Source of the DNA: Oscillibacter sp.
GTDB lineage: Bacteria; Bacillota; Clostridia; Oscillospirales; Oscillospiraceae
Direction of reading: 5' to 3'
Assembly: GCA_034933545.1 (NCBI GenBank)
Contig: JAYFNH010000013.1
Location: forward strand, 2,125-66,124
Length of the DNA: 64,000 nucleotides
Shown piece by piece: positions 6,806 through 58,599 of this stretch. Each line of letters starts with the position of its first letter. Position 1 is the stretch's first letter. The notes under the pieces were generated by a model. That model was given only the letters and a program-made list of their open reading frames with translations. It was not told where the DNA came from and did not search any database. A program made the position numbers and the translations under genes.

Positions 6806-6837
6806 GTTTCTTCCTCCTTCAAAAATATACAACTCAT

Positions 6838-8109: not shown

Positions 8110-8116
8110 ATCTCCC

Positions 8117-11057: not shown

Positions 11058-12099
11058 ACTGCATCAGCCTTTCTTTATCCCTCTGAGTGTATGTGATCCA
11101 CACATAAGTCCCATAGGGTTTTTCTTCGTTTGCGGCAATCAAATGAGCCACAGTGGAGGATTCGTCTGCGGCATAGGGGGCGCAGAGTATCTCGCGGGCA
11201 CTCTCCCAAAAATCATTTTCCGAGGCCACAGGCTTTGTGACAAATTGTGAAAACCGGTAGTCATACCAACTTACACAGTGGGACAGCCCCCGCTGCCACA
11301 GCGTATAGGAAAGGGAGATCGCCAGTTCGGCGGCATTACTGCGCTGCTGCGCCGTCAACTCCTGCTCGGGCTCCATATCCCGATCCAGCAGGATCAAAAG
11401 CTTGCTATCCACGGGAAGACCGTACTCCTTCACCTGCACATCGCCCAACTTTCCCGACAGCTTCCAGTGGATGGCTTTCATACTGTCACCCGGCATATAG
11501 GAACGAATGGCAAAAATATCAGAGGGGTCATCGCCTCGGCGGGCGGCGGAATAGCGGAAGCTCTCCATGTCGTAGGCTTCAAATGCGTCATCTTGCAGGG
11601 GAAGCTGGGCAGGACGGGGAAAGCAGTAAACAGACGCCCGGGCCTGGACGGGCCGCTTTCGTGTCAGAAGACGAAAAGGATCGCCCACCCGCACTTCTTT
11701 TATGGAAAGCTCTGCGCAGCCGCAGAGTTCGTTTTGTACCGAAAAGGGGAAAACCACGGTTTTTCCTCCCCCAGCCGCAAAAGAAAATTGCTCCTCCGCA
11801 TCGTCGCCGGTGAGCAGATTACGAATGGAGAGGGTGACATCACAGGAAAAAACCGAAAATCGGCTGTCGTTTTTGATGGTGATTTTCACTTCGGCGCTCT
11901 GGCCCTTTTCCGTTCGGGAAGGCGCCGCTATGTGCCATGTCAGATGTCGCCCTCCGCCGAATGCGGCTATGGCGGCCAGCACCAACATGATAATGGCGCC
12001 GGACAGCAGAAAGGAACCTGTCTTTCCTTCGGTGGCCAGATAGAACAAAAGGAGGACCGCGGCCGTAGCCGCCATGCCGATATAATGCCGTTTTGTCAT
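11008..12099 (-). CDS. DUF58 domain protein
   Basis: N-terminal TMs; GDDPSDIFAIRSYMPGDSMKAIHWKLSGK..VKEY signature. Confidence 0.9.
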   Translation of the reverse strand: MTKRHYIGMAATAAVLLLFYLATEGKTGSFLLSGAIIMLVLAAIAAFGGGRHLTWHIAAPSRTEKGQSAEVKITIKNDSRFSVFSCDVTLSIRNLLTGDDAEEQFSFAAGGGKTVVFPFSVQNELCGCAELSIKEVRVGDPFRLLTRKRPVQARASVYCFPRPAQLPLQDDAFEAYDMESFRYSAARRGDDPSDIFAIRSYMPGDSMKAIHWKLSGKLGDVQVKEYGLPVDSKLLILLDRDMEPEQELTAQQRSNAAELAISLSYTLWQRGLSHCVSWYDYRFSQFVTKPVASENDFWESAREILCAPYAADESSTVAHLIAANEEKPYGTYVWITYTQRDKERLMQYGQVNVYEPASFLSEE

Positions 12100-13052
12100 G
12101 CTTGCCGCGCCCCGGCGCCGGACATGGTAGGCGCCGTGACGCCGGAGAGTACCTCTGCCAGTACCGTATCCACTGTCTGCTGTGAAAGTTGGGCTTTGGG
12201 CTTAAGCAAGACTCTGTGGCGGCAGACATCCGGAAATACGTCCTTTACGTCTTCGGGGATCACATACGTCCGTCCCTCCACATAGGCTTTGGCCCGAGCC
12301 ATGCCGAAAAGCGCCAAAGCGCCACGGGGGCTCAGACCCAGACGAACCACGTCGTGGGCTCTGGTGGCTTCTGCCAGCAGAGCGATATAAGTACAGATCT
12401 TTTCATCTACAAAGACCGATCTTACCTCTTCTTTCAGTTCTTCAATGTCCTCGGCGGCGGCAACACAGGCAATATGAGCCAGCGGATCGTCTTTTTCCCG
12501 GTCACGAAGGATCGTCACCTGCGTTTTGAGGTCTGGGTAACCGATGGAGAGCTGAATCATGAACCGATCCAGCTGCGCTTCCGGCAGCATTTGCGTTCCG
12601 GCTGTTCCAAGTGGATTTTGTGTTGCCATGACAATAAAAGGGGAGGGAACAGCGTGTGAAGTCCCGTCAACGGTGATTTTGCCCTCCTGCATGACCTCCA
12701 GCAGTGCCGACTGGGTTTTGCTGGACGTGCGGTTGATCTCATCGGCGAGCAGAAAGTTGCACAGTGCCGCGCCTGTCTGATACCGAAACGCTCCTGCCTG
12801 TTTGTCATACATGGAAAAGCCCGTGATGTCCGAAGGGACCACGTCGGGCGTAAACTGAACCCGGTTGAAGGTCAGCCCCATGGCTTTGCTGAAAGCCAGC
12901 GCCAGAGTTGTCTTTCCCACACCGGGAATGTCCTCCAGCAGGATATGCCCACCAGCCAAAATGGCTGTCATTACTTTTTCCACCACATCGCCTTTTCCCA
13001 CGATGGCTTTTTCCACTTCTTTTTTAATGGCCTCCACACGCTCTTGCTTCAT
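12096..13052 (-). CDS. moxR: MoxR-family AAA+ ATPase
   Basis: GGHILLEDIPGVGKT, RVQFTPD..PSDITG, LLADEINRTSSKTQSALLEVMQE, ATQNP, LPEAQLDRF. Confidence 0.95.
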   Translation of the reverse strand: MKQERVEAIKKEVEKAIVGKGDVVEKVMTAILAGGHILLEDIPGVGKTTLALAFSKAMGLTFNRVQFTPDVVPSDITGFSMYDKQAGAFRYQTGAALCNFLLADEINRTSSKTQSALLEVMQEGKITVDGTSHAVPSPFIVMATQNPLGTAGTQMLPEAQLDRFMIQLSIGYPDLKTQVTILRDREKDDPLAHIACVAAAEDIEELKEEVRSVFVDEKICTYIALLAEATRAHDVVRLGLSPRGALALFGMARAKAYVEGRTYVIPEDVKDVFPDVCRHRVLLKPKAQLSQQTVDTVLAEVLSGVTAPTMSGAGARQA

Positions 13053-13164
13053 CCCTATTTTCTCTCCTTTATCTGTGTGTCATTTTTTAAACAGCAAATA
13101 GCTGCCGCAGCCGTTTTTCCGCAAATGCAATAAACTCCGAATCCAATGTGATGCGGACGGAAAA

Positions 13165-13348
13165 ATCTACAAGCGGGTCTTCTGACTTGCGCACGATGGT
13201 TCTCATTTGCCTTCCCAAAGAATCAGTGACTGGCTTTCGCCGTGAATGAGAGCCTCCGCGCTTACAGCAGCGGTACCATACAGGATTTTCACCTGTTTTC
13301 CTGTACGCCTCTTTCCTCTGATGGCAGGAAAAGAGACACTTGAATATG
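13165..13348 (-). ncRNA. Cobalamin riboswitch (upstream of moxR operon)
   Basis: AGGAAAACAGGTGAAAATCCTGTATGGTACCGCTGCTGTAA ... GTCACTG ... TTTGGGAAGG ... AAGTCAGAAGACCCGC core motifs. Confidence 0.9.
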
Positions 13349-13365
13349 GATTCAATTCGTATTTT

Positions 13366-13414
13366 GCGGCGGCAGGGAGGGAAGCCCGTGTCATCCGGGG
13401 CTTCCCTCCGCCGC
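13366..13414. other. GC-rich hairpin between the 102-aa ORF and the second riboswitch
   Basis: GGAGGGAAGCCC / GGGCTTCCCTCC stem extended by GCGGC arms; T-run only on the plus strand, so not a clear terminator in the sense direction. Confidence 0.55.
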
Positions 13415-13454
13415 TTTATCATGGAAGGCAGATATGCTGCCGGGACTTGCTAAG

Positions 13455-13763
13455 TCAGCAGGGCTGATTTCCTTCCGCCTGCGGCCAAAAGAGCACATAG
13501 CATTCGGCCATTTCACCCATATAAAAGAAAATATTTTCGCCCATTTCAATATGCCTGCCAAAGGTGAGATCCGGAATAAAAAGCCTCGCACTGGTGCGCT
13601 TGTGGCCCTTGATCGTCAGTCCCTCCGGCGTGGGCGCGTCACGCAGCTGCCGTGCCGCTTCCGCCAGACCCGGGAACTTCAGATTTTGTTCCAGACGGGT
13701 CAGATCCTTTTCGGCGTTGACGTACACCAGATGGTCCTGGTCCATAAACCAATTCATGTTCAT
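13455..13763 (-). CDS. Hypothetical protein (102 aa) under a cobalamin riboswitch
   Basis: AAGGAG RBS before ATG 13763 (MNMNWFMDQD...); the longer track start lies inside the riboswitch leader. Confidence 0.75.
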   Translation of the reverse strand: MNMNWFMDQDHLVYVNAEKDLTRLEQNLKFPGLAEAARQLRDAPTPEGLTIKGHKRTSARLFIPDLTFGRHIEMGENIFFYMGEMAECYVLFWPQAEGNQPC

Positions 13764-13805
13764 AGCCAATCTCCTTTTCACATCTTGATGAGTTGCAAAA
13801 GCATA

Positions 13806-13833
13806 AAAAAACTGCGGCAGCCAAAAGCTGCCG
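13806..13833 (-). terminator. Riboswitch attenuator terminator
   Basis: Minus strand GGCTGCGGCAGC-TTTT-GGCTGCCGCAG-TTTTTTT between the aptamer and the RBS. Confidence 0.75.
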
Positions 13834-13888
13834 CAGCCGATATTTCTGCGCCACAAAACTCCCTGCCCGTCACGCGCGGTCGGAGCAA

Positions 13889-14071
13889 CATTCAAGCAGG
13901 TCTTCTGACTGGCGCTTCTTCAGTTCCCTCGCGGCCTTCCCAATTTCTCAGTGGCTTACTTTCGTCATGCGAGGGGACCTCCACGCTTACAGCGGCGGTA
14001 CCGTACAGGGTTTTCACCTGTTTCACTATTCTCCTGTGCAGCCTGATACGGCAACGCAGGCACTTGAATGA
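13889..14071 (-). ncRNA. Cobalamin riboswitch (upstream of the 102-aa ORF)
   Basis: P1 CATTCAAG/CTTGAATG; GAAACAGGTGAAAACCCTGTACGGTACCGCCGCTGTAA, GCCACTG, TGGGAAGG, CCAGTCAGAAGACCTGC. Confidence 0.92.
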
Positions 14072-14095
14072 TTTCTTAAATATTTTATTGTTTTT

Positions 14096-14124
14096 ATATT
14101 AACAGCATTACCTGCCTTTGTCAA
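14096..14124 (-). promoter_or_regulatory. Sigma-A promoter of the leftward B12 transcript
   Basis: TTGACA, 17 bp, TAATAT on the minus strand. Confidence 0.75.
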
Positions 14125-14184
14125 GAAGACGCGGCCAAAGACACAAAACTGACCGAAGAGAGGGACTTGATTTTCAAATGGGGC

Positions 14185-14213
14185 TTTACAAATGGGGAGG
14201 AACCATTTATACT
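14185..14213 (+). promoter_or_regulatory. Sigma-A promoter of the rightward B12 transcript
   Basis: TTTACA, 17 bp, TATACT. Confidence 0.75.
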
Positions 14214-14245
14214 AGCATTAATTTAACAAAAGAAGGAATATTTAG

Positions 14246-14351
14246 CAAACAGTTTCGTTTGACGAATAAAAGGGAAACCCGGTGTGATTCCGGTGCAACC
14301 ACCATTGCCGTATTTGGGATGTCGCCCATAAGCCGGAGGACTTACTGTTTG
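14246..14351 (+). ncRNA. Short (class II-like) cobalamin riboswitch
   Basis: P1 CAAACAGT/ACTGTTTG; AAAAGGGAAACCCGGTGTGATTCCGGTGCAACC...GCCGTA; AAGCCGGAGGAC; lacks the long P8-P12 extension. Confidence 0.85.
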
Positions 14352-14504
14352 TGATGGTCATCTTACACTTTTGGGTGAAGGAAAAGTGCAGCCGTAGAAC
14401 GCTTGGCACTTTTTCCGGAAAATGTCAGGTTTCTTCTGTTGCACGTTAGCGCCTCTCGCTGAAAAGTGAGGGGCGCTTTATTGCTGAAAAGGGGGAAACA
14501 CCGT

Positions 14505-14798
14505 ATGGCTTCAAATCTGACAAAAGAGGATATGATAGCGCTGCTGCAGGCAAAAGCGGCGACATTGGGATGCCTTCCCCAAAAATCTGATTTTTCTGAA
14601 TATGAAGTCTCAATGATCAAGGCCTATTTCGGCCCTTGGCCCCGAGCACTGGAGGCGGCTGGCATCAAGGAGATCAGTCAAAACTATCTGCGCAAGAAAA
14701 AAAGCCATAAAAAGAAACGGATCGAGTCCAAGGTTCGTAAGCGGGTCTACAAAGCCACACGAAATAACACAATTGAAGATAAGGATAAAGTTCGGTGA
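14505..14798 (+). CDS. Homing-endonuclease-associated repeat (HNH_repeat-like) protein, 97 aa
   Basis: KEDMIALLQAKAATLGCLPQKSDF...IKAYFGPWPRALEAAG motif and a very basic C-terminus. Confidence 0.75.
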   Translation: MASNLTKEDMIALLQAKAATLGCLPQKSDFSEYEVSMIKAYFGPWPRALEAAGIKEISQNYLRKKKSHKKKRIESKVRKRVYKATRNNTIEDKDKVR

Positions 14799-14857
14799 AA
14801 TTCCGTCACAACCGCCATTTCCGTGTTTGAGCATGGCTCATCAGTCGGAAACATCCT
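14782..14857 (+). ncRNA. Degenerate short cobalamin-riboswitch-like element overlapping the upstream stop codon
   Basis: TTCGGTGAAATTCCGTCACAACCGCCATTTCCGTG...AGTCGGAAAC parallels the 14246 aptamer; AGGAT/ATCCT closing stem; no AGGGAA. Confidence 0.45.
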
Positions 14858-14885
14858 GCTACAGCACTTTGGGAAGATAAAACGG

Positions 14886-14930
14886 AGGGTGCTCGGCTGC
14901 CTGCCAAGGCAGTCGGGCACCTTCTTTTTT
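14886..14930 (+). terminator. Leader terminator before the DUF4430 surface protein
   Basis: AGGGTGCTCGGCTGCCT / AGGCAGTCGGGCACCTT then TTTTTT, upstream of the AGGAGG RBS. Confidence 0.75.
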
Positions 14931-14956
14931 ATAAAAAATTGAATTAGGAGGACGAG

Positions 14957-16783
14957 ATGAAAATTCCAAAAACAGTTTTACGGCTACTGGCATGCCTGTG
15001 CATAATTGCTTACCTGCTTCCCTCTATGTGCATTGCTGCAAAAGCCGCAGAATCAGGTGCATCGATTACCGCCACGCTGGTAGATCACTCTGAGCAAAAG
15101 GGCAGCAAAAAGACTTTTGACGTGATAGCCCGCGATTCTGCCGGCAAAAAAATCGCTTGCACGGTCACGCTCAATGAGACAGAAATTCCTTATAACTGGG
15201 ACGATGCCAACAAAACCAGTTATACATTGCTGTTTACCCAGGAAGGGGACAACGTCATTGTTGTTACAGCGGGTGACGCCAGCAAAACCTATCATATTAT
15301 CTATCAGAAAGCCAAGTCCGGCGACCCAATCGGCTACGCCACCTGGTCAATCGAAGCCACCACCATTGGGTATGGCTTTATCATTGAACCAATGCGTGTA
15401 CCCATTTACGAAGGCGAAAACGCCGCGCAGATGCTGGATCGTATCCTGACGGAAAACGGTTTCTCTTACTCCTACACCGGGAACCTGACCGGGGGCTTTT
15501 ATATCTCTGCTCTGGGGCCTGGCGGCGTTTTTACCCACGGCAGCAGTGCACCTTTTGGCGGCGGTGCGGCATTTAATCCTCTTGAGAAGTTGACCGAATC
15601 AAGCGTTCCCGCCGTTCTGATGAACGTTTTGACCAAAGAGGGAACGTCGCTGGATACCGGCTGGGGCAACAGCCGCAAAGGCCCGAATTTGGGCGAATTC
15701 GACTATACTTATATGTCCGGATGGATGTACGAAGTCAACAACATTTTCCCCAATGTTGGCTTTGCCGACTCCTATCTGTCAGATGGTGATGTACTGCGCA
15801 CTTGCTTTACCCTTTATGGATACGGCGCCGATTTGGGGGGCGGCTATTCTATGGGTGGCGGTGATACCACCGATTTTTACAAGGTGGCCGATAAAGACAC
15901 ACTGTACCGTGGCATTGGCCTCATCAATTCTGATAAACAGAAAGCGGATCTGCTCAAAGACAGTGCCCTAAAAAGCGCCTATGACCAGGCAAACAAACTG
16001 GCTGTCCAACTGGATGCGCCGCAGGACGCTGTTACTACTGCGGCTGATGCGCTGGACGCTGCTTCAGCGGCGGCTATTGCCGCCCGCGACAAGGCTGCCG
16101 TGGACGCGGTGGACACCAAGATCGCGGCCATCGGCACCGTGACGCTAAGCAGCGAAAGCGCCATCACTGACGCCAGAACCGTTTACAACGGGCTGAGCGC
16201 GGAACTTCAGGCGAAGGTGGCCCACTACGATACGCTGACTGTGGCTGAAAAGGCACTGCACGATTTAAAGACCGTACCTGTTACAGCAAAAGACCTCACG
16301 ACCGATGTGGTAATTATTCTCGATCCTACGGCTATTCCCACGGATACGTCGGTCGCTATTCAGCAGGTTGCATCCGAACACCATTTGCGCAGTTTTACTG
16401 ACAACGCACTGGCTTCCTTTAACGGACGCTACGTAGCCTATGAGATTCAACTGACCAGAGACGGAATGACAGTAGAGCCCAATGGTTCGCTGACGGTTCG
16501 GTTCCCTGTTCCTGCCGGTTTTGATACCTCCGCCATTGAAGTCGTCAAAGTCCTGGAGGATGGCTCCTTGAAGAGATATGACTGTATCGTAAAAGACGGG
16601 TATGCATCCTTTGAGGCAGACAGTTTTAGTATATATGCTCTGGTGCAGGCGGAATCGGCCGCACAGTCAATACAGAAAACAGCTCCAGATACCGGAGATG
16701 CGTTTACAGCATATACGGGTATTGTAATGGCGCTCAGTTTCTTAGGGATCATTGATCAGATACGCAGAAAACGCTACCAGTAA
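14957..16783 (+). CDS. Cell-wall-anchored DUF4430 protein
   Basis: Signal peptide; LGEFDYTYMSGWMYEVNNIFPNVGFADSYLSDGDVLR DUF4430 motif; helical stalk; APDTGD, TM and RRKR sorting signal. Confidence 0.85.
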   Translation: MKIPKTVLRLLACLCIIAYLLPSMCIAAKAAESGASITATLVDHSEQKGSKKTFDVIARDSAGKKIACTVTLNETEIPYNWDDANKTSYTLLFTQEGDNVIVVTAGDASKTYHIIYQKAKSGDPIGYATWSIEATTIGYGFIIEPMRVPIYEGENAAQMLDRILTENGFSYSYTGNLTGGFYISALGPGGVFTHGSSAPFGGGAAFNPLEKLTESSVPAVLMNVLTKEGTSLDTGWGNSRKGPNLGEFDYTYMSGWMYEVNNIFPNVGFADSYLSDGDVLRTCFTLYGYGADLGGGYSMGGGDTTDFYKVADKDTLYRGIGLINSDKQKADLLKDSALKSAYDQANKLAVQLDAPQDAVTTAADALDAASAAAIAARDKAAVDAVDTKIAAIGTVTLSSESAITDARTVYNGLSAELQAKVAHYDTLTVAEKALHDLKTVPVTAKDLTTDVVIILDPTAIPTDTSVAIQQVASEHHLRSFTDNALASFNGRYVAYEIQLTRDGMTVEPNGSLTVRFPVPAGFDTSAIEVVKVLEDGSLKRYDCIVKDGYASFEADSFSIYALVQAESAAQSIQKTAPDTGDAFTAYTGIVMALSFLGIIDQIRRKRYQ

Positions 16784-16838
16784 AATATTTTGACTAATTT
16801 TCCTCGCTATTTACGTAATTGTTTTTAAAATATCGCAG

Positions 16839-16880
16839 AATACCGTTCCCAACGACAGGCAAGCCGCTGGGAACGGTATT
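16839..16880. terminator. Hairpin between convergent B12 operons
   Basis: AATACCGTTCCCA / TGGGAACGGTATT inverted repeat. Confidence 0.6.
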
Positions 16881-16881
16881 T

Positions 16882-19506
16882 TTATTCCACGAGACCGTAT
16901 TTGACTTTTATTCGGTCCAGTTTCTCAAGCATCGGCTCCGCGCCAAACCAGAGAAACAGCCATGTCGCCCCCGCGCGGACGCAGTCCACAGGGAAACCGG
17001 AGACATAGTAGGCCAGAAGCATTTTTACATCCAGCGTGCGTGCCCAAATCAGGGCGGACACAGGATTCATAATACCGCCGTAGATAACAATGGAGCAGAA
17101 TGCGCCGAACACACAGAGCGCCGACCTGCTGCGCCGCAGCAGGCCCTTGCGAAACAGCACGCCTGCAAGAAATCCGATGATGCCCATGGCAAACATCTGA
17201 AAAGGTGTCCACTGTCCTTGCCCAAACAGTACATTGGAGAGAAGCATCGTCATGCTGCCCACAAGAAAGCCTGTCTCGCCGCCGAAGGCCACGCCGGAAA
17301 TGATTGTGATCGCAACCACCGGCTTAAATTCCGGCAGTGCGAAAAACGCCGCACGGCCCGCCACACCCAGCGCACAGAGCACCGCAATGACGATTAGTTC
17401 CCGCGCCTGAGGCTTCCGCCCCTCGAACACGAGAAAAAATGGGAGCATCGTTTCCAGGAGGATGAGCAACGCAATAAAATAATATTTTTTTCCGCCCAGG
17501 ACGGCCACGCCGAAATAGAGCGTCAGGGGAATCAGCAGTAAAATCAGCCCTCCGGCCACAATGGTGCGCCGGGACAGTTTTCGCTTTTCCAGCGACGTCT
17601 GACGGAGATAGTCCGGCCGGTTGGAGCGTCGCGTGACGCAGGTCGCAAAAACGAACAGGGCTGCGAGAAACAATGCATAGAGCCGGAGTTGGACCGTGCC
17701 CATGGTCGTGGTTCCGGCGGAACCGATCAGCTTGGTGAGATCGGTTACGCCCATGGCCTTCCAGAATAAATAGAGCGAAAGGCCACCGGAGAGTGCAGCT
17801 CCGGCGATTCGCCACCAAGGCAGCGGTTTTGGTTTCCAGTCCGCGGAGGTCTCTGCGGGTTGCGGCAGCGGTGAGAAATCGTCCTCCAGTGTTGGCACGG
17901 GCGGGATATTGCCGCCGCAGGCGGCAATCAGGTCGGTGGCTGTGACGGCGTTGGGCAGAAAGCCCCGGGCCATACGGCTTCCTGCGGTTGTGTAAAAGCT
18001 ATTGCCGGAAAAAAACAACCGGGGCGTGTTTTCCGTCACAATGGCGCCATCGAAAAACAGGGCGCAGCGATCTGCGTATTCCGCACAGAACTCCACATCG
18101 TGGCTGACCATGAACACGGTCACGCCGTGGAGCCGGAGCACCCGCAAAATCTCCGCCAGAACTTGCTTGAATTCCGCGTCAAGCCCTTTGGTCGGCTCGT
18201 CCAGAAGCAAAATTTCCGGTTCAAGCAGAAGTACCTTGCACAGGGCGGCCCGCTGCTGTTCGCCGCCGGAGAGGTCGTAAGGATGCCGGTCAAGCAGCGT
18301 CTCGAGGCGGCAGAGCCGCACGGCACGCGCCACCTTTGCCTCACGGTCAGAGCCCTTCGGCAATATTTCAAACAGATCCTCCCGGACGGTCTTTTTTACA
18401 AAAATCGTCTGCGGATTTTGCGGCAGAAAGCCCACTTTGCCGTTTACGGTCACCTTGCCCCGATAGGGCTTGCGGAGTCCCGCCAAAATAGAGAGTGTCG
18501 TGGTCTTTCCGGTGCCGTTTCCGCCAAGCAGCGCAAAGAACGAGCCCTTGGGAACACGGAGGTTGAGATCCTTGACCACATCAGGTGAATCCTCCGTATA
18601 TTTGAACCATACATTTTCCAGCATCGCCGCCGATGGTGCCTCTGTCACGGTGGGAGCTTGAGGAACCGGTTGAAAGTCCTGGAATCCGGCAAGCCAGCGG
18701 CGGCCGTCCCTCACTGTGACGGGGCAGGAAGCGTTGCTGTCCGTGGCGGCCCAGACGCGCATGGCTGTTGGCATGGCGAGAAACATCGCGTGTCCGATTT
18801 TTCGAAGCTGTTCGCCCACTGCCTGCGGTGTTCCGTCGGCAATTCGCATGCCGCTGTCCATCACCAGCACACGATCGGATAGCGGAAGAACCTCCTCAAG
18901 GCGGTGCTCTGTGATCAGGACCGTTGTGCCCAGTTCTCGGTTGATTTTCCCCAGCGTGGCAAGAAAATCAGAGGCCGCAATGGGGTCGAGCTGGCTGGTG
19001 GGCTCATCGAGTACCAGTACGCTGGGCTGCATTGTCATGACAGCCGCCAGATTGAGAAGCTGTTTCTGGCCGCCGGAAAGCTCAGTCACATTTTTGTAAA
19101 ACCAGGTTTGAATGCCAAAAAAATTTGCCATCTCCGCTACGCGCCCGCGAATTGTCTTTGTGTCGCAGCCGAGGCTTTCCAAGCCGAAGGCCAGTTCGTG
19201 CCAGACCTTGTCCGTCACAATCTGGTTTTCCGGCGACTGCTGCACGAACCCAATGCCCGTGCTTTGCGTCCGCAGATCCAGATCGTCCAGGGATTTTCCT
19301 TCAAAGAAAATTTTTCCAGTCCGCCTGCCGTGCGGGGCCAGCACGGATTTAAGCTGCCGCAGCAGCGTGGATTTTCCGCATCCGGATGGGCCGCAGATCG
19401 TCACAAACTCGCCGGGCTGCACCGAAAAAGACAGATTTTGAATAGCCGGTTTTGGCTGTCCCGGATAGAAAAAGGTCAAATCTTCCAGTTCAAAGCAGGC
19501 GGGCAT
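16882..19506 (-). CDS. ECF transporter fusion: two ATPase domains plus a CbrT-like S component
   Basis: GPSGCGKST/LSGGQ/VLDEP and GGNGTGKTT/LSGGE/LLDEP; C-terminal multi-TM domain with ARE...IAVL.AL..AGR...P.FKP...I.IISG S-component pattern. Confidence 0.9.
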   Translation of the reverse strand: MPACFELEDLTFFYPGQPKPAIQNLSFSVQPGEFVTICGPSGCGKSTLLRQLKSVLAPHGRRTGKIFFEGKSLDDLDLRTQSTGIGFVQQSPENQIVTDKVWHELAFGLESLGCDTKTIRGRVAEMANFFGIQTWFYKNVTELSGGQKQLLNLAAVMTMQPSVLVLDEPTSQLDPIAASDFLATLGKINRELGTTVLITEHRLEEVLPLSDRVLVMDSGMRIADGTPQAVGEQLRKIGHAMFLAMPTAMRVWAATDSNASCPVTVRDGRRWLAGFQDFQPVPQAPTVTEAPSAAMLENVWFKYTEDSPDVVKDLNLRVPKGSFFALLGGNGTGKTTTLSILAGLRKPYRGKVTVNGKVGFLPQNPQTIFVKKTVREDLFEILPKGSDREAKVARAVRLCRLETLLDRHPYDLSGGEQQRAALCKVLLLEPEILLLDEPTKGLDAEFKQVLAEILRVLRLHGVTVFMVSHDVEFCAEYADRCALFFDGAIVTENTPRLFFSGNSFYTTAGSRMARGFLPNAVTATDLIAACGGNIPPVPTLEDDFSPLPQPAETSADWKPKPLPWWRIAGAALSGGLSLYLFWKAMGVTDLTKLIGSAGTTTMGTVQLRLYALFLAALFVFATCVTRRSNRPDYLRQTSLEKRKLSRRTIVAGGLILLLIPLTLYFGVAVLGGKKYYFIALLILLETMLPFFLVFEGRKPQARELIVIAVLCALGVAGRAAFFALPEFKPVVAITIISGVAFGGETGFLVGSMTMLLSNVLFGQGQWTPFQMFAMGIIGFLAGVLFRKGLLRRSRSALCVFGAFCSIVIYGGIMNPVSALIWARTLDVKMLLAYYVSGFPVDCVRAGATWLFLWFGAEPMLEKLDRIKVKYGLVE

Positions 19507-19553
19507 AGGTTCCCCTTCCTGCTGCTGCGCCGCTGCGGACGCTCGTGTCGCTG

Positions 19554-20540
19554 TTATTCTTCATAGAAATTGCCTTTCTGAAGCGTTCCTCTCTGCAGGC
19601 GCACAGAAGATGCCCGCTCCGCTCTGTTTTTGCAGGAAAGTTCATGAGTCAGATAAGCCGGCTGAATCCGCCGAAGCACTGAGACGATTCTTGGATCTGT
19701 CCAGGGCTGATGCCGGTCGATCTGTAGAATATGATTGTAACTCTGCTCGAACCGTGCAAGATAGCCATCGGATTTCCACACTGGAATCATTCCCGTGTGG
19801 CCTTTGACATAGGCACCTGACAACGACTGATGGAGATGTACACCGCGAATCATCCCACACAGGCTGCCATAGCGGTCCAGCATCGTATGCAGGTATTGAA
19901 TGCCATCCGCCTCCGACCGAAGCGCAGGATTGGTATTCATCAAGTGACCCGTGTCTAGCATGATGCCCTTCTTTTCCGTCCGGATGCCGCGCAAAAGATA
20001 GTCCGTCTCAGAAGGATCCAAAAATGTGAAACCGGGCCACCACTGATTTTCCACCAAAATCTCAAAGCAGTAGCTGCGGTCCTCCAACAGCAGATTCAAA
20101 AGTTCCAGGGAGGCGTCCAGAACGGCGCGGTTTCCGTGCAGCCACCGGTAGGTATACGCTTCCTCCAACGAAACATCCGACACATGAAACACCACATAGC
20201 GCACTTGCAGTAGTTCGGCTCGGCGCAGATCCTCACGGTATCGGGCGACAAATTGCGCTCTGTTCTCCGCACCGTAAAAGGATGTCCATGCCGCGCGGCT
20301 GCCAAATTTTTGAAGGAGTGCCCCTTCGCTGCCATTCCAGAAATCGACCCAGTCGGGATAGAACATCAGGTGATAGCCGACCACCAGCCCGACGAGCAGC
20401 TGAGAGAGCGCATCGTCTCCGCCCCAGACCGCCTCGATTCCGTCGCAATCCTGGGCACGACAGGCAGCGGAAAGCGCTTCGGCGCTGCCGTACTCCGCCA
20501 CACTTTCCCGGTAGACCGGGAAGCTGATCGTTTCAAGCAT
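19554..20540 (-). CDS. AP-endonuclease-2 / xylose-isomerase-like TIM-barrel protein (CbiR-like candidate)
   Basis: Metal-ligand motifs GYHL, YVVFHV, VENQWW, LDTGHL, VHLHQS; embedded in a cobalamin-riboswitch ECF operon. Confidence 0.75.
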   Translation of the reverse strand: MLETISFPVYRESVAEYGSAEALSAACRAQDCDGIEAVWGGDDALSQLLVGLVVGYHLMFYPDWVDFWNGSEGALLQKFGSRAAWTSFYGAENRAQFVARYREDLRRAELLQVRYVVFHVSDVSLEEAYTYRWLHGNRAVLDASLELLNLLLEDRSYCFEILVENQWWPGFTFLDPSETDYLLRGIRTEKKGIMLDTGHLMNTNPALRSEADGIQYLHTMLDRYGSLCGMIRGVHLHQSLSGAYVKGHTGMIPVWKSDGYLARFEQSYNHILQIDRHQPWTDPRIVSVLRRIQPAYLTHELSCKNRAERASSVRLQRGTLQKGNFYEE

Positions 20541-21438
20541 TGCTCTGTCCTCCTGCCTGCGTAGCCTTCCAACTGCGCTGCGCCGCGCCGTCCATCAGAA
20601 CCGGCATAAGGCAGAGCAGGAGATAGACTGCGAAAAAGCTGGCGGAAAACGGTGTGAAACGCCCATAATCGACATAGGGATAATACTGAAAATACGCGCC
20701 GCCCGCCGCCCAGCCGGCAAACAAATAGGTACTGCAGAACCCAAGGCAGCAGAGGGCCAGCTTGTCCCGACGATCAAAATGATAGATAGAAAAAGCGGTT
20801 CTGCCCGGAAGACCGTAACCGCGGCTGCGCATGCTGTCAGCCGTCTCAATTGCGTTTTCCAGGCTCCAGGTAATCATAATCGAAAAAATTTTGATACCGT
20901 TTTTTGCCAGTGCGCCCATACTCCGCCCCGTGGTTTCCCGCCCGACAGCGCGCTGTGCCTCGCGCACGACACGCATCTGCGCCTGAAACCGCGGCACAAA
21001 ACGCAGCGACATGCTGAGCACCAGACTAAGGGAGGGAATGACCCGACCGAAGAGAAAGACAAATTTGTCGGAGGTCATTACCCCGTTGTAGCAGGAAAAC
21101 CAGAGCACTACCGCGGAAAGCATGGCCGCGGCGGCCAGACCGTACCAGATGCTCTCCAGTGTCAGAGGGTTGCCGCTGGGCAGATACGTCAGGATGGTCA
21201 TGCCCGCGTGGGTGAGCAGAGGATTCAGGACTGCGGTCAGCGTCATCAGCGGCAGGAGAAAGCGCAGCGATTTCTTTTGCTTTGCCGCATAGACCGCGGC
21301 AGAACAGAGCGAGATCAGCAGGCAGACAGGGTGCATCAGGCACATGGAAAACATGATGACAAGCGCGAAAAACAAAAAATTCACCAACGGATGACAGCCG
21401 GCAAAGGTATCCTGCCGCGAGACGGTGTTTTTCACCAT
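20533..21438 (-). CDS. ECF transporter transmembrane T component
   Basis: HP.VNF start; SMSLRFVPRF and ENAIETADSMRSRGYG conserved Arg motifs. Confidence 0.92.
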   Translation of the reverse strand: MVKNTVSRQDTFAGCHPLVNFLFFALVIMFSMCLMHPVCLLISLCSAAVYAAKQKKSLRFLLPLMTLTAVLNPLLTHAGMTILTYLPSGNPLTLESIWYGLAAAAMLSAVVLWFSCYNGVMTSDKFVFLFGRVIPSLSLVLSMSLRFVPRFQAQMRVVREAQRAVGRETTGRSMGALAKNGIKIFSIMITWSLENAIETADSMRSRGYGLPGRTAFSIYHFDRRDKLALCCLGFCSTYLFAGWAAGGAYFQYYPYVDYGRFTPFSASFFAVYLLLCLMPVLMDGAAQRSWKATQAGGQSNA

Positions 21439-21439
21439 T

Positions 21440-22192
21440 TCACCTCACCGCGCTTCCGCCGCCGACATCGTTTCCCTGGTCACAGGTGTATACAAAGTCA
21501 ATTGTATTCCCACTTTTGACACAATAGCGAGAACAGCCGTAGTTGGGGAACCAACCATTTACTTTGTACATCCAGCCGGAGTTTTCACCGACATCAAAAT
21601 CATAGAGGTTATCAATGCCCTCGATATAGGCGCTGTTGTATATAGGCACCCATTTGGATTCCATTTGAATACCCTTCTGCTGGCAAACACGCTGCAAAAT
21701 GTCAAACACTGACTCGCCCTCCGTAAACGGCACCGCAGTGCTGTTTAGGATCCACCCATCTTCCGGTACGATTTTAGCTTTTGCCGGGTCACAAAGAGAC
21801 ATATTGTCTAAAATTGTTTTACAGGAAATGGAGATGGTGCAAGTCAGCCCCGTCTCCGCAGAAGCCGTTGGATTCACTGCTTCCGCGCCTGTTTCACCGC
21901 CGTTTTGTGGCTCTACCGGGGCTGGCTTACCTGCCGGCGTGGGGTCTGTTAAATAGGCATCCTTTGCAGTTTCCGGAACTTCATCTTCTGCTGACGTTTG
22001 GGCCTGGGGCGTTTTGGATGAATGCGGTTCCCCAACAGCTTCTGTCTCCGTGGTTGTTGTGTTCCGCGGCATGACCGACCAGCCTCGTGCCCCTGGCGCA
22101 CTGCCGCCGTACCAGAAAGAAAACGCCAGCATTGCCAGGACGAAAACCGAAACAATCACCGTCCATTTGTTTTTCTTAAACCATTTCTTCAT
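21440..22192 (-). CDS. Membrane-anchored DUF4430 protein (ECF-associated B12-binding candidate)
   Basis: ATG 22192 after GGAG; N-terminal TM; CTISISC.TIL; YIEGIDNLYDFD.GENSGWMYKVNGWFPNYGCS.Y. Confidence 0.88.
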   Translation of the reverse strand: MKKWFKKNKWTVIVSVFVLAMLAFSFWYGGSAPGARGWSVMPRNTTTTETEAVGEPHSSKTPQAQTSAEDEVPETAKDAYLTDPTPAGKPAPVEPQNGGETGAEAVNPTASAETGLTCTISISCKTILDNMSLCDPAKAKIVPEDGWILNSTAVPFTEGESVFDILQRVCQQKGIQMESKWVPIYNSAYIEGIDNLYDFDVGENSGWMYKVNGWFPNYGCSRYCVKSGNTIDFVYTCDQGNDVGGGSAVR

Positions 22193-22428: not shown

Positions 22429-22463
22429 AAAAAAATCGCTGATTTTCCAAAGAAAATCAGCGA
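22429..22463 (-). terminator. Riboswitch attenuator terminator
   Basis: TCGCTGATTTTC-TTTG-GAAAATCAGCGA-TTTTTTT on the minus strand. Confidence 0.8.
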
Positions 22464-22516
22464 ACGCATTTCAAAACACGCATGCGGAGAAAACGCCCGC
22501 TGTTTCCGGTCCATCT

Positions 22517-22745
22517 GTTGTGCAATTCTCCTGGCTTGCGTTCTGGGAAAATATTCCCGCGTATGCTTCCTACCTTCTCACAGATTTCTCTGCAATGGCG
22601 GACTTTCGTCCAGGCGGCATTTCACCGCTTTGGGGCATTCTCACGCTCACAGTGCCGGTCGCGCCGGGTTTCAAACCCGTTTCCTTTTGACTGCTGCCTA
22701 ACCCATTCGGGTTGTTACGGCAAACAGCCACACCACATGCTATCG
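22517..22745 (-). ncRNA. Cobalamin riboswitch (upstream of the ECF operon)
   Basis: AAAAGGAAACGGGTTTGAAACCCGGCGCGACCGGCACTGTGA, GCCATTG, GAGAAGG, AAGCCAGGAGAATTGC. Confidence 0.88.
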
Positions 22746-22777
22746 GACCAAATATTTAATTTTCAGAAAGAAAATTA

Positions 22778-22825
22778 TGATAAATCTTTATTTATCAGTA
22801 TAACTGCGGACTGGGACAATGTCAA
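22778..22825 (-). promoter_or_regulatory. Sigma-A promoter plus palindromic operator
   Basis: TTGACA (22820-22825), 17 bp, TATACT (22797-22802); TGATAAAT-CTTT-ATTTATCA at 22778-22797. Confidence 0.75.
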
Positions 22826-26047: not shown

Positions 26048-26632
26048 TTACAGCAGTACGCCGGAGACAATATATTTTTCCTCATCCGATATCACGGTGT
26101 CCACCTTGTACCACTGTCCCATCAGCGCCGCCAACTGATCTTCGGCCATCAGACCCATGGAGACCTTGCTGGCGCTTCCGTGATGGTGCGTGTCGATCCT
26201 GGCCCGGCTCATGCCGTGGGCCACGGTGAGACGCCCCCCCGGCGCCATACAGCCGGCCAGGTGGGAGAGCAGCCCCGCAGGGTCGGGAAAGTGGGGAAAG
26301 GCGTTGTAGATCATCACGCAGTCAAATCTTTCGGGAAAGGTAAGCTCCTGCACGTCGGCGCACCGCACCTGGATACGGGCATCGTCATATTTTCCCGCGG
26401 CGATATGGGCCATGACCGGAGAGATATCCACGCCCACCACAGATGCTACGTCGCGGGCCAGATAATCGGGGAAGAGGACGCCCGTGCCGCAGGCCACGTC
26501 CAGCACCCGCTTCCCGGAGGAAATGCCGCCGCGGTCCAAAATGGTATGGATGATCCGGTCGCTGCGGACCAGGGCTGCATCCCAGGTGGGCGCGAGGGTA
26601 TCAAAAAAGGCGATCACATCGGAACGTTCCAT
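26048..26632 (-). CDS. Class I SAM-dependent methyltransferase
   Basis: VLDVACGTG, VDISP, FD.VMIYNAFPHF motifs. Confidence 0.9.
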   Translation of the reverse strand: MERSDVIAFFDTLAPTWDAALVRSDRIIHTILDRGGISSGKRVLDVACGTGVLFPDYLARDVASVVGVDISPVMAHIAAGKYDDARIQVRCADVQELTFPERFDCVMIYNAFPHFPDPAGLLSHLAGCMAPGGRLTVAHGMSRARIDTHHHGSASKVSMGLMAEDQLAALMGQWYKVDTVISDEEKYIVSGVLL

Positions 26633-26667
26633 GGTAGAGTCCTCCTGTTCTGGTTCACTATGAGGCG

Positions 26668-27840
26668 TCAGCAGAAAAAGGAGGCGGTGTCCACCTGCTG
26701 ATATCCGCCAAAGCTGGCGGGGGCCCCGAAAATTTCACGGGAGAGCGCTTTGCCCAGAAATGCCTGGGTGATCTCGTCAGTCTTGGCCGCCATGTCCACG
26801 TCCGTAAAGCGATCCGGATAGGCGGTCTTTGCCATGAACCATGTGTTCATCAGGGCCGTTTCATAGTTTGTATAGTAGGCGTTGTAGGCCATCTGGAGAT
26901 AAACACGGCCGGTCTGCCATGCCTTGCAGGAATCGAACAGGGAGCTGTCCGCCTGGTACAGGGGCTTGATATTCTTGACGGCGGCCGCATCCATGATGAT
27001 GATGTCTATGTCCTTGCCAAGAGCGGTGAACTTTTCCTGCTCGATGGGCCCGATACCATCCTTTGCCAGATCGTTCACCACGTTTTTCACGTTGGCAATG
27101 CGGCAGGGAATATAGTTCTGAGCGGTCATCAGGTGGTTGGTGGTACCCCAGTTGCCAAGGCCGCAGACATAGACGCCGGGTTTGTCCGCGTCGGCAATAC
27201 CGGCGGTCCTGACGGTAATATCGGCCGTCTGGGCGTCAATAAAGGAGATCAGCGTCCGGGCTTTTTCCTCTTTGCCGAAAAGGGTGCCCAGCAGGGTCAT
27301 GGAGTTTTTGAACGCGTCGTCAAAGACGCCGCCCGGGCCTGCCTTCAGCGTGACCACGGGAACGCCCAGCTGCTCTTGCAGGGCATTTTCTTTTTCCACG
27401 TCTTCGTATTCGGAGATCACAATATCCGGGGCGCAGGCAAGGATCTTTTCCGCTTCCGCCGCCTGAGCGTTGGGGCCTCCTACGCCGCAGGAGGGCAGCT
27501 GGGAAAAGACGTCGCCAAAGGCCAAAACATAGGGCCGCGCCACGGAGTCGAACATCTTGGGCCGGTTTTCCAGCGTGGGGTTGTCGATGTCCTCCACGCC
27601 GCACAGCAGCGCCGTATCGCCGATATAGCTGTACATCCGCAGCGCGCCGGCGCCGATGCAGGCCACCTTTTGATACTGACCGGGGGTGACACTTACCTCC
27701 CGGCCGATGAGATCGGTGATGGTGACCTCCTCCTCCTTCCCGCCGGCGGTGCTTTCGGTCTGGCTGGATCGTCCGCAGGCGAACAAAGCAACGGTCATCA
27801 TAAGGGCCAGGATAAGGGCAAGTCCTCTTTTAACTTTCAT
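26668..27840 (-). CDS. Iron/cobalamin-chelate-type ABC transporter substrate-binding lipoprotein
   Basis: Lipobox LFACG; [10 protein letters not shown]; EKIL..APDIVI; GRVY; ATG 27840. Confidence 0.88.
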
Positions 27841-28600
27841 AACGGTTTCTCCCAATAATCATTTTTTGATTTTCTATGGTAACGATCCTGACGCTGACGC
27901 CGAAAACGTCCTGGATGACGCTTTCGCTAATGCACTCCGCGCCGCCGGAATATTTGATGGCGCCGTCCTTGATAAGAAAAAATTTGTCGCCGAAATGCAT
28001 GGCCTGGTTCAGATCGTGCAGCGAGCTGAGAATGCCGATGCCCCGGTTCCGGGTCAGCTTCTTCGCTTCTTCCATCATCAGCTGTTCATTGGCTACGTCC
28101 AGATTGCCTGTGGGTTCGTCAAAGATCAGCAGACGCGGCTCCTGGGCCATCGCCCGGGCGATGGCGATCTTCTGCCGTTCGCCGCCGGAAAGCTCCTGCA
28201 CGTTTCGGGCGGCAAAGGGAGCAAGACACATATCATCCATAATCTTCTCCACGGCTGCGTAGTCCTCGGGCTGTGCCTTCAGGCCGAAATAGGACACACG
28301 CCCCATGAGAATGGAGTCAAACACGCTCAGGGAGCCAAAGCGGATATCCTGGGGCACATAGGCCACTTTGCGAGCCCGCTCTTTTCGCGGCATCCGCAGA
28401 AGATCCTCGCCGTCAAAGCGGATGGAGCCGCTGTCCGGCGTGTGGACCCCCAGTATGTTTTTAAAAAGCGTGGTCTTTCCCGAACCGTTTTTGCCCAGGA
28501 GGATCCCGATCTCCCCGTCCTTTAGCTGCAAACTGAAGTCGTTGAGAACAGGCAGCGTCCGCCGGGTGTACTGGAAGGACAGATGATCAATATGCAGCAT
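27830..28600 (-). CDS. ABC transporter ATP-binding protein (FepC/BtuD-like)
   Basis: [28 protein letters not shown]; ATG 28600. Confidence 0.92.
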
Positions 28601-29660
28601 CGCCTGCTCCCCCTTTTTGAAAGATGATGAAAATAAAGAACGGCGCCCCCAGCAGAGAGGTGATGGCGCCCACCGGCAGGGCGGAGCCGCTGCCCATGCT
28701 TCTGGAAAGCGTGTCGGCGATGAGCAGCAGGAGACTGCCGCTGAGGGCCGACACAGGAATGGAAAGCCGGTGATCCTGCCCCAGCAGCTTCTTTGTGATG
28801 TGCGGGCAGATGATCCCCACAAACCCGATAACGCCCAGAAAGGAGACACAGACGGCTGTGATCAGCGACGCGAGCAGCAAGGAGAAAAAACGCAGCAGAT
28901 CCACATTGATGCCCATGCTCCTGGCCGTTATCTCGCCGCTGAGCAGGGCGTTGTACCGCCATGCCATCAGCATAAAGAAGACAAGACCCGCAAGCACCAC
29001 CGCCAGCATGAGAGCATCGGTGCGGTAGGTGGCTCTGCCCAGATCCCCAAAATTCCAGATGACGGCGGCGGATAAACCCACATCGGTGGCGTAAAACTGC
29101 AAAATGGTGGTGGCCGCCGTCCAGATGGAGCCAACGGCAATACCGGCCAGCACCACCACATTGGGGGAAAAGGCACGGAGGCGGCAAAGCCCCAGTATCA
29201 GCAAAATAGACACGGTGGAAAAAAGAAAGGCCATGAAACTGGTGGCGTAAGGATTGGCGCCCACGGCGAAGTTGGACACATTGTGCCCGGTGGACAAAAA
29301 ACCGCCGGCAAAGGCGATGATGGAAAGGTTGGCGCCGAACACCGCCGCGTTGGAAACGCCCAGGGTGGAGGGCGAGGCCATGAAGTTGCTCAGCGTGGTC
29401 TGCATGATAAGGCCGGCGACTGACAGGCCCGCTCCGGCGATCAGTGCCGCCAGAAGACGGGGAATGCGGATATGCCAGATGATGCGTATATGGGCGGCGG
29501 TGCCGGCTTTGGCAAGCGCCGCAGCGACCTCCCCAACGGACATCCCCGAAGAGCCCACAAAAAGGCAGACAAACGCCATCACCACCACGGCGGCGACCAT
29601 CACAAGAAGAATGGCGATATGCTTTTTGTTGGTATGACTCAATGTTTTGGCAGTTCTCAT
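28587..29660 (-). CDS. FecCD/BtuC-family ABC permease
   Basis: [16 protein letters not shown]...Q....[10 protein letters not shown]; [12 protein letters not shown]. Confidence 0.92.
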
Positions 29661-29851
29661 AGTGATGGATGTATCTCCAATTTTTCATTTTTACCCTTAA
29701 AAATATAACATAAAGCGGGAAACCGCGGAAGCCCCCAGGGGGGATGCCCGGCGCGCGTTCTTGCCGATAAGGGAGATACAATGTGGGGCGGCTTTACAAA
29801 CGGCGTCGAAAATGGTATGTTGGTAGTAAAGATTTTGATGGAGGCGTTGCT

Positions 29852-31087: not shown

Positions 31088-31091
31088 AGAA

Positions 31092-31167
31092 AAAGGCACG
31101 CCGGTTCGATCTGAACCGGCGTGCCTTTCTTGATGAAAAAAGAGACCGCCAGAAGGCGGTCTCTTTT
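31092..31167. terminator. Two hairpins between convergent pepT and oppA
   Basis: AAAGGCACGCCGGTTC/GAACCGGCGTGCCTTT and AAAAGAGACCGCC/GGCGGTCTCTTTT. Confidence 0.8.
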
Positions 31168-31186
31168 CAAATGCTGTCAAAACAGA

Positions 31187-39827: not shown

Positions 39828-39916
39828 AAAAGAATCCTCCGTTGCCCGCTTTTGAACGGTGTGATGATATCTCCTATGGCACTCCATTTGAGGTCGTTTG
39901 TTCCCCGTCAGCGCGC

Positions 39917-40042
39917 AAAAAAAGCACACCCGTGGAACATACAACTGTCCCACAGATGCGCGAAGAGCACACTCTGCTGCCGTTTTCCAAACGGCCCGGC
40001 CCCACGCCCGTGTCCGGGCATCGCCTGCTCAGTTTGTACTGT
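39917..40042 (-). ncRNA. NiCo (czcD) riboswitch with terminator
   Basis: AACTGAGCAGGCGATG...GGGCCGGGCCG...CGGCAGCAGA...CATCTGTGGGACAGTT aptamer; alternative stem with TTCCACGGGTGTGC followed by T7. Confidence 0.88.
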
Positions 40043-57435: not shown

Positions 57436-57546
57436 GTTTACTACCTCTCGATTCCTTATTTTGGTTCAAATGGGAATGACTTTTTGGGGGGAGGCGGACC
57501 GGGAAGATGATGTGGCTGAAATGACCGCGTAAATCACATAAGGGCT

Positions 57547-57579
57547 GCTGATGTAAAGCTGATGTAAAGCTGATGTAAA
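57547..57579. repeat. Three exact 11-bp tandem repeats
   Basis: GCTGATGTAAA x3 (TTTACATCAGC on minus), immediately after a minus-strand TGGTATAAT (57580-57588). Confidence 0.85.
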
Positions 57580-58572: not shown

Positions 58573-58599
58573 ATTTCATCAGGAAAGGCGGAAACGATC

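Follow-up and report, generated by a model that had tools for sequence, protein, structure and literature searches.

A TIM-barrel protein family in riboswitch-controlled B12 importer operons of gut Clostridia, a candidate for cobamide cleavage coupled to uptake

We analyzed a 64,000-nt stretch of DNA from Oscillibacter sp. (GenBank assembly GCA_034933545.1, contig JAYFNH010000013.1, positions 2,125 to 66,124; hereafter the window), in which a gene for a triosephosphate isomerase (TIM) barrel protein lies inside a cobamide importer operon, among genes of the ECF-CbrT type (ECF, energy-coupling factor) behind a cobalamin riboswitch. The barrel carries a conserved set of metal-ligand residues of the endonuclease IV type, its relatives recur next to vitamin B12 (B12) riboswitches and importers, and the gene co-occurs with CobS. 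Because of these three observations, import coupled to removal of the cobamide lower ligand is our best hypothesis for its function. By sequence and profile comparison, the barrel represents a separate, previously unnamed family, which has kinship with endonuclease IV and CbiR but belongs to neither. CbiR is the phosphodiesterase that remodels cobamides in Akkermansia muciniphila (Amuc_1679, NCBIfam NF041277; PMC7733943). What is new here is this family and its systematic embedding in importers; the idea of uptake-coupled hydrolysis itself is not new, as the coupling of hydrolysis to uptake was already proposed by the authors of the CbiR study (PMC7733943).

The barrel open reading frame (ORF) starts with an ATG and runs on the minus strand from position 20540 to 19554, with a GGAGGA ribosome-binding site 7 nt 5' of the start. 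The ATG (20540-20538) and the stop codon TGA of the upstream EcfT gene (20535-20533) create an 8-nt overlap, in ATGCTTGA, and the next gene, an EcfA-EcfA'-S fusion, begins 47 nt past the barrel TAA. An earlier sequence-only reading of this DNA had placed the barrel gene between the T and ATPase genes of an ECF transporter, overlapping the T stop. This arrangement was confirmed, and the "ATPase gene" was found to encode the S (substrate-binding) subunit as well. The barrel gene is a real gene, since one database contains 1716 of its homologues (E≤1e-3) and another, with 1.8 billion representatives, has 485 clusters at 50% identity, mostly from gut Clostridia. Those homologues that have a name, from Pseudoflavonifractor, Faecousia, Butyricicoccus, Acidaminobacterium and similar sources, are called "TIM barrel protein" or "sugar phosphate isomerase/epimerase", and our literature searches found no paper describing the family. 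Apparent domain fusions in two homologues (P0135 and P0246) turned out to be a GyrA chimera and a mis-called start, and were set aside as not informative. The protein has no signal peptide, and beta-strand 1 begins at residue 2 of the AlphaFold2 model, in line with a predicted cytoplasmic location.

The only Pfam match of the barrel was PF01261 (AP_endonuc_2), barely above threshold (31.6 versus 31.1 bits), and a single-sequence search of the PDB returned nothing significant, the best hits being parathion hydrolases (E~0.3). The AlphaFold2 model, built with 116 homologues, is an eight-stranded beta/alpha barrel with a mean predicted local distance difference test score of 97.6 and a predicted template modelling score of 0.94, and at this quality we regard the modelled xylose-isomerase-like TIM barrel fold as secure. 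All top Foldseek matches in the PDB were members of the AP_endonuc_2 superfamily, the first eight being endonuclease IV structures (best E=3.6e-8). The Pfam score above the gathering value, the fold, and homologues with a precomputed PF01261 assignment place the barrel in this superfamily. The AP-endonuclease-2-type barrel recognized from the letters alone was therefore correctly named, and a shared superfamily with CbiR, also claimed at that stage, holds as well.

Eleven residues are at least 90% conserved among the 116 homologues (E36, H57, H119, E164, N165, D196, H199, H235, D275, H277, and E300), and in the AlphaFold2 model they sit at the C-terminal ends of strands 2 to 8. Nine of them (H57, H119, E164, D196, H199, H235, D275, H277, and E300) follow the order H-H-E-D-H-H-D-x-H-E over strands 3 to 8. 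We take the three-metal (zinc) ligands of endonuclease IV to be H69, H109, E145, D179, H182, H216, D229, H231, and E261, a set that reportedly comes from the structure described by Hosfield in 1999. This nine-residue pattern is present in the barrel family, and the His/Glu/Asp residues noticed in the first reading are real and conserved. When the family profile was compared with the PDB, the best solved relative was E. coli endonuclease IV (E=7e-4), the alignment pairing E164 with E145, D196 with D179, H199 with H182, and H235 with H216; for the other five ligand positions the match relies solely on order and placement on the strands. The family's D-R-H motif (IDRHQPW) also matches that of the host's own Nfo (KDRHEKI). 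These comparisons support a predicted phosphodiesterase-type metal site in the barrel.

To place the family within the superfamily, we scanned its 116 members against NCBIfam. Repeated matches were found only to CbiR (41 members, best E=7.3e-6) and to nfo/TIGR00587 (40 members, best E=6.4e-9, below the model cut-offs), and sugar-enzyme models were matched by at most 7 of the 116. The window barrel itself gave no match to the nfo models (TIGR00587/PRK01060) at E≤10. From these scores we read the family as belonging to the phosphodiesterase part of the superfamily, about equally distant from endonuclease IV and CbiR. Global hhalign runs with lone endonuclease IV or epimerase sequences did not align sensibly, and a closer kinship of the family with that of a second host barrel (contig C26, see below) than with Nfo is at most a possibility.

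CbiR cuts cobamides into cobinamide-phosphate and an alpha-riboside, is oxygen-sensitive and inhibited by ethylenediaminetetraacetic acid, and is predicted to feed CobU and CobS (PMC7733943). Its homologues were defined by BLAST against A. muciniphila CbiR at E<1e-3, or E<1e-14 for the tree clade; very few of the 282 listed in 2020 are from Firmicutes, and no entry of the homologue table contains "Clostridi", "Ruminococc", "Oscillo" or "Flavonifractor" (PMC7733943). As a reference we used the orthologue from an Akkermansiaceae metagenome-assembled genome (MAG; L033), which lies directly upstream of cobU and overlaps it. This Akkermansia-type orthologue scored 232.5 bits on the equivalog model NF041277 and a Bilophila CbiR 264.4 bits, versus 12.8 bits (E=0.063) for the window barrel and a cut-off of 105; across the family no member did better than E=7.3e-6. 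BLASTP of the window barrel against the Akkermansia sp. orthologue revealed no similarity (E=1.4). A profile-profile comparison of the family (116 sequences) with CbiR (65 sequences) reached 78% probability (E=1.8e-5, 166 columns) with the ligand motifs in register, and the global profile alignment paired H57 with H73, H119 with H111, E164 with E154, D196 with D178, H199 with H181, H235-H237 with H204-H206, and E300 with E243 of CbiR. Seven conserved positions thus align, the D-x-H pair (D275, H277) falling within an insertion that is unaligned to CbiR. The conserved His/Asp/Glu residues on an AP_endonuc_2 barrel are therefore shared with CbiR. In the published set 80% of cbiR genes adjoin cobamide biosynthesis genes and 25% adjoin transport genes (PMC7733943); the window barrel adjoins importer genes and no biosynthesis gene. 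By sequence the window barrel is not a member of the CbiR family, and the earlier proposal of a CbiR-like enzyme, insofar as it implied membership, fails on the low similarity that its author had named as grounds for rejection. A specific structural kinship between the barrel and CbiR was likewise dropped, since their solved-structure neighbours differ (endonuclease IV versus MJ1311 and xylose isomerases). As a separate observation, an Akkermansia 16S primer sequence (AM1, which we take to be Akkermansia-specific) was found on contigs (L001-L029) of MAGs labelled Collinsella, Bacteroidales, Muribaculaceae, Mailhella, and others; these stray sites most likely reflect 16S fragments that were assigned to the wrong MAGs during binning.

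The operon spans positions 22825 to 16882 on the minus strand, in the order riboswitch, DUF4430, EcfT, barrel, and fusion (Table 1), and from this layout the reading of the four genes as one compact transcription unit holds. The aptamer is a weak-scoring variant that was recovered again in a whole-genome Rfam search, and the hairpin that follows it is likely the expression platform of an OFF switch. The DUF4430 protein, whose homologues accompany the barrel in most ECF-type loci, is a candidate extracellular corrinoid catcher. No Pfam match was found for the EcfT gene product, which was recognized by its solved relatives. In the fusion, the two ATPase domains scored 326.6 bits on TIGR04520 and 304.9 bits on TIGR04521, the S component matched PF07155 and PF12822 at residues 701-854, and the best solved relative of residues 625-874 was the CbrT chain 6fnp_A (E=4.1e-8). 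6FNP is ECF-CbrT, an importer of cobalamin and cobinamide (PMC5997447). With a CbrT-like S component, EcfT, two EcfA ATPases, and an upstream RF00174 element, the operon has the parts of an ECF-CbrT importer, and its transport function is predicted from them. Placement of the barrel inside a cobamide importer operon, as originally noticed, was thereby borne out.

Table 1. Features of the barrel region in the window and gene content at loci of distant family members
Feature or locus	Position	Strand	Description and evidence
Promoter-like site	22797..22825	-	TTGACA-17-TATACT, heads the operon; 11/12 consensus matches, consensus match only
Cobalamin riboswitch aptamer	22504..22750	-	Weak-scoring variant; Rfam RF00174 35.2 bits versus gathering 31.5, full model length
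Terminator-like hairpin and T-run	22436..22463	-	Between aptamer and first gene; 12-pair stem, then TTTTTTTATC
Membrane-anchored DUF4430 protein, 268 aa	21440..22246	-	PF14478 E=7.7e-17; N-terminal hydrophobic segment in translation
EcfT transmembrane coupling subunit, 301 aa	20533..21438	-	PDB 5d3m_D E=3.8e-8, also 4hzu_T and 4huq_T
AP_endonuc_2 barrel, candidate cobamide phosphodiesterase, 328 aa	19554..20540	-	Endonuclease-IV-type nine-residue metal-ligand set
EcfA-EcfA'-S fusion, 874 aa	16882..19506	-	Two ECF ATPase domains and CbrT-like cobalamin S component
DUF4430 surface protein, 608 aa, convergent	14957..16783	+	PF14478
Cobalamin riboswitch of the 608-aa DUF4430 gene	14233-14363	+	RF00174 49.1 bits
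L035			Fused ATPases, CbrT-like S component, barrel
L037			Cobalamin riboswitch (100.8 bits), barrel, SBP_bac_5 ATP-binding cassette transporter
L051			Riboswitch, barrel, DUF4430 proteins including one of 1757 aa
L052			Riboswitch, BtuF-like protein, FecCD, ATPase, barrel, DUF6847
L056-L058			Barrel among DUF4430 giants and CbrT-like S component
L061			Barrel, DUF4430, EcfT, fused ATPases, S component
L129	2698-5014		Cobalamin riboswitch (108 bits), barrel, ANTAR response regulator

The link between the barrel and B12 extends well beyond this operon. Among 80 metagenome loci, mostly from the human gut and retrieved with a 24-sequence family alignment, 44 repeat the window order DUF4430-EcfT-barrel-fusion, and three further loci have a riboswitch adjoining the barrel gene. 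Distant members, with 25-40% identity to the window barrel, recur in differing B12 settings (Table 1), either with several classes of transporters or with a riboswitch and no adjoining transporter; the barrel of L122 likewise lies behind a B12 riboswitch. At L129 the companion is an ANTAR response regulator, and ANTAR-type regulators control ethanolamine utilisation, a B12-dependent pathway. Counting a cluster at ≥80% identity as one lineage, about 21 of 31 lineages are B12-linked within 3-8 kb through riboswitches, ECF-CbrT, BtuFCD-type or other importers, or DUF4430 proteins, these context counts not being phylogenetically independent. One common stand-alone gut lineage (L106 and 20 similar human-gut contigs) has the barrel between an unassigned divergent ORF and a tRNA/NrdR region, with a 520-nt gap upstream of the barrel and no detectable riboswitch there, and a relaxed Rfam search at five stand-alone barrel loci found no riboswitch. 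In two genomes from another Clostridia family (L053, 5310-8984, and L054, 7998-11829), folD, an Amidohydro_1 gene, a 259-aa CbiR-like barrel, and the family barrel stand in a row, the CbiR-like gene directly preceding and overlapping that of the window family; a tetrahydrofolate riboswitch lies upstream and a cobalamin riboswitch immediately downstream.

The barrel gene was found in 13 (one a pseudogene) of 399 genomes sampled from the class, in 11 genera, and in none of 14 other genomes of the host's order; because of this sparse distribution we consider it an accessory gene. CobS was present in all 13 carriers, versus 131 of the 399 genomes (33%), an association with a hypergeometric p of 3e-7, or 9e-6 by genus, uncorrected for phylogeny. 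None of the 13 carriers has a protein above the CbiR cut-off of NF041277.

Neither cobU nor cobS was found on the window's contig, in agreement with their reported absence from the window, and the salvage partners that were expected to lie elsewhere were located by searching the host genome (2.52 Mb, 98% complete) for loop-assembly genes. On contig C26 (~56285-61396, plus strand) we identified a second barrel, cobT (401.5 bits), cobU, cobS, a 116-aa CobU-like ORF, and a cobC-aldo-keto-reductase fusion. The second barrel (~257 aa) has endonuclease-IV-type motifs, its stop overlaps the cobT start, and its best NCBIfam match is the CbiR model NF041277 (35.2 bits, E=9e-9, below the cut-off). Its family has 2155 relatives, some clusters holding thousands of gut-metagenome members, and by profile it matches the window family at 97% (E=1.2e-10) and CbiR at 96.4% (E=1.1e-9). 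Because the host has this second, more CbiR-like barrel in its cobTUSC cluster, the two barrels may not be redundant. CbiZ was absent from the host genome. Six cobalamin riboswitches were detected in the genome, four of them inside the window and none on C26. Contig C18 (~4500-22100) carries a long minus-strand operon with CbiC and CbiB that appears to encode the anaerobic corrin pathway, the genes beyond CbiB and CbiC being assigned by reading N-terminal motifs. Divergent from it, a cobalamin riboswitch (16579-16758, plus strand) is followed by a gene for a CbiK-like lipoprotein and a BtuF/FecCD/ATPase set. The host probably both makes corrinoids de novo and scavenges them.

Taken together, these data led us to propose that the barrel is a cytoplasmic metallo-phosphodiesterase opening the nucleotide loop of imported cobamides, a proposal to which we give about an even chance and in which substrate, bond, products, and coupling to import are what we infer. 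The nucleotide loop is the presumed target because it contains the sole phosphodiester of a cobamide and because CbiR provides a precedent (PMC7733943). Under this proposal, cobamide scarcity would let transcription pass the terminator through the riboswitch, and the barrel would be co-transcribed with a B12-repressed cobamide importer of the ECF-CbrT type. The DUF4430 protein and the CbrT-like S domain would capture corrinoids, and the EcfT/EcfA-A' module would import them. The predicted three-metal centre of the barrel would then hydrolyse the nucleotide-loop phosphodiester, giving cobinamide-phosphate and the alpha-riboside of an unwanted lower base as CbiR does, and CobU, CobT, CobC, and CobS, encoded on C26, could rebuild the loop with the organism's own base.

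Several observations weigh against this proposal. The likeness of the barrel to CbiR is at the level of the superfamily only, with endonuclease IV equally close, and when CbiR was modelled, its nearest solved structures were MJ1311 and xylose isomerases rather than endonuclease IV. That the nine residues cluster in space we infer from their strand positions in the model. About a third of the lineages have a solitary barrel gene that lacks a nearby riboswitch or transporter. A more CbiR-like barrel is already present in the host, where its translation is coupled to that of cobT, and the presence of a CbiR-like barrel both in the host and beside the window-family gene in L053 and L054 suggests that the two catalyze different, possibly sequential reactions. 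Finally, remodelling would not be obligatory, because the host probably makes corrinoids de novo.

Some of these observations lead to the rival that we take most seriously, unlikely as it is, namely that the barrel catalyzes a phosphoester reaction of the corrinoid pathway other than that of CbiR. It could cut on the other side of the phosphate to give cobinamide and alpha-ribazole-3'-phosphate, hydrolyse guanosine diphosphate-cobinamide, or dephosphorylate cobinamide-phosphate, cobamide-5'-phosphate or alpha-ribazole-phosphate; each barrel could also serve one class of cobamides. The B12 context and the metal site would fit equally, and two endonuclease-IV-like barrels in the host, adjoining and overlapping in L053 and L054, would fit complementary steps. 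However, late biosynthetic phosphatases are rare in import operons, CobC is already encoded on C26, and the alternative cleavages are needed by no known pathway.

The remaining readings (DNA repair, sugar chemistry, a non-catalytic role, and true CbiR orthology) are improbable even when taken together. A DNA-repair paralogue of endonuclease IV, or some other enzyme that has nothing to do with B12 and is simply carried along in the operon, would explain why the best solved relatives are endonuclease IV structures and why a third of the lineages lack B12 neighbours. We consider it quite unlikely, as the host encodes a canonical nfo on contig C5 (PF01261, 175 bits), the association with B12 riboswitches recurs with non-ECF transporters and in several gene orders, and the co-occurrence with CobS is perfect. 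Sugar epimerases have a four-residue E-D-H-E ligand set, versus the nine His/Asp/Glu positions of the barrel. A sugar or sugar-phosphate isomerase or epimerase, perhaps acting on a ribose-derived compound, is accordingly very unlikely despite the names of some homologues and the poor separation of superfamily folds by Foldseek, all the more so as the host's epimerase-like barrels matched the barrel profile at probabilities of 0.4-2.9% and the sugar-enzyme models met so few family members. We hold it to be just as unlikely that the barrel is a non-catalytic protein that binds corrinoids and takes over B12 from the transporter. Translational coupling to EcfT would suit such a role, and the family-specific aromatic motifs PxWLDFW and ENLWWPG could line a large pocket, but the complete, strictly conserved metal-ligand set argues for catalysis. 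A diverged true CbiR orthologue is scarcely credible, for although the superfamily is the same, the ligands align, and the CbiR model is the only NCBIfam match of the window protein, its scores fall far short (12.8 bits versus 105, BLASTP E=1.4), insertions of ~40 residues separate the two, endonuclease IV is equally near, and few Firmicutes appear among the 282 published homologues.

A wider and more speculative reading, which we advance tentatively and consider rather unlikely, is that cobamides are opened in gut Clostridia by no fewer than two non-orthologous families of endonuclease-IV-like enzymes, in addition to CbiR. The barrel family would work within several classes of importers, making uptake and cleavage one vectorial step that traps the cofactor as charged cobinamide-phosphate, and importer-linked and cobT-linked enzymes would divide substrate class or bond between them. 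If this were true, human gut Oscillospiraceae and their relatives would commonly remodel lower ligands under riboswitch control. Human gut corrinoids are mostly B12 analogues, and the organisms that convert them decide who can use them. To our knowledge, the only enzymes that start remodelling are CbiZ, some CobS enzymes, and CbiR. As CbiR is nearly absent from Clostridia, the barrel family, annotated as no more than "TIM barrel protein" and present on many contigs of human-gut metagenomes within B12-repressed importers, would provide a further, widespread route for the conversion of analogues, and genome-based predictions of cobamide dependence and sharing would change. With the barrel operon, the coupling of an enzyme to an ECF transporter could also be tested directly.

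Other features of the window are linked to B12 or to metals. The convergent gene for a 608-aa DUF4430 surface protein, with its own riboswitch (Table 1), is part of the same scavenging region and lies outside the barrel operon. Near the ECF operon, a BtuFCD-type uptake system (26048-31180, minus strand) represents a second importer in the region; it comprises a BtuF-like Peripla_BP_2 protein (26668-27855), a FecCD permease (28587-29660), a 507-aa ORF without Pfam match (29657-31180), and a small S-adenosylmethionine methyltransferase (26048-26632). In a further minus-strand segment (3347-14082), a tandem of cobalamin riboswitches (13878-14082 and 13155-13358) is followed by a MoxR AAA ATPase gene, unassigned ORFs, and genes for a TgpA-like transglutaminase protein and a Big_2/cadherin-like surface protein of 1170 aa, a cargo that is unusual for a B12 regulon. 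A NiCo (nickel/cobalt) riboswitch (74.7 bits, 39943-40042, minus strand) lies upstream of an 890-aa ORF (37281-39953), which is probably a metal efflux or uptake gene and would be relevant to cobalt supply for corrin synthesis.

Among known systems, endonuclease IV (Nfo; TIGR00587; PDB 1QTW and 4K1G) is the best solved relative of the barrel by both sequence profile and fold, with the same nine-position ligand pattern including the D-R-H motif. The barrel differs in that the family falls below all nfo model cut-offs, has extra helical insertions, and occurs in a context of B12 uptake, not DNA repair. With CbiR it has in common the AP_endonuc_2 TIM barrel, the aligned His/Asp/Glu positions, a predicted cytoplasmic location, and cobamide loci. 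In contrast to CbiR, the window barrel is ~60 residues longer, with family insertions of ~40 residues between strands 3 and 4 and after strand 7; the family occurs in Clostridia, a class with almost no entries in the published CbiR list, and usually in importer operons, not beside cobTSU, and its activity is a prediction. CbiZ (adenosylcobinamide amidohydrolase, PF01955) is likewise a cobamide remodelling enzyme linked to B12 transport, at times encoded with or fused to transport genes (PMC7733943), but its fold and chemistry are unrelated (an amide bond versus a phosphodiester). A further relation, present in the same genome, is the C26-type barrel family, which has a profile relationship to the window family, endonuclease-IV-type ligand motifs, and a B12 context, yet is shorter, nearer to CbiR, and coupled to cobT rather than to a transporter. 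As for the importer, the S domain, EcfT, and ATPases of the operon match the subunits of ECF-CbrT of Lactobacillus delbrueckii (PDB 6FNP; PMC5997447), whereas in the host both ATPases and the S component form a single chain, and the module is dedicated, riboswitch-controlled, and equipped with an added DUF4430 protein and the barrel enzyme.

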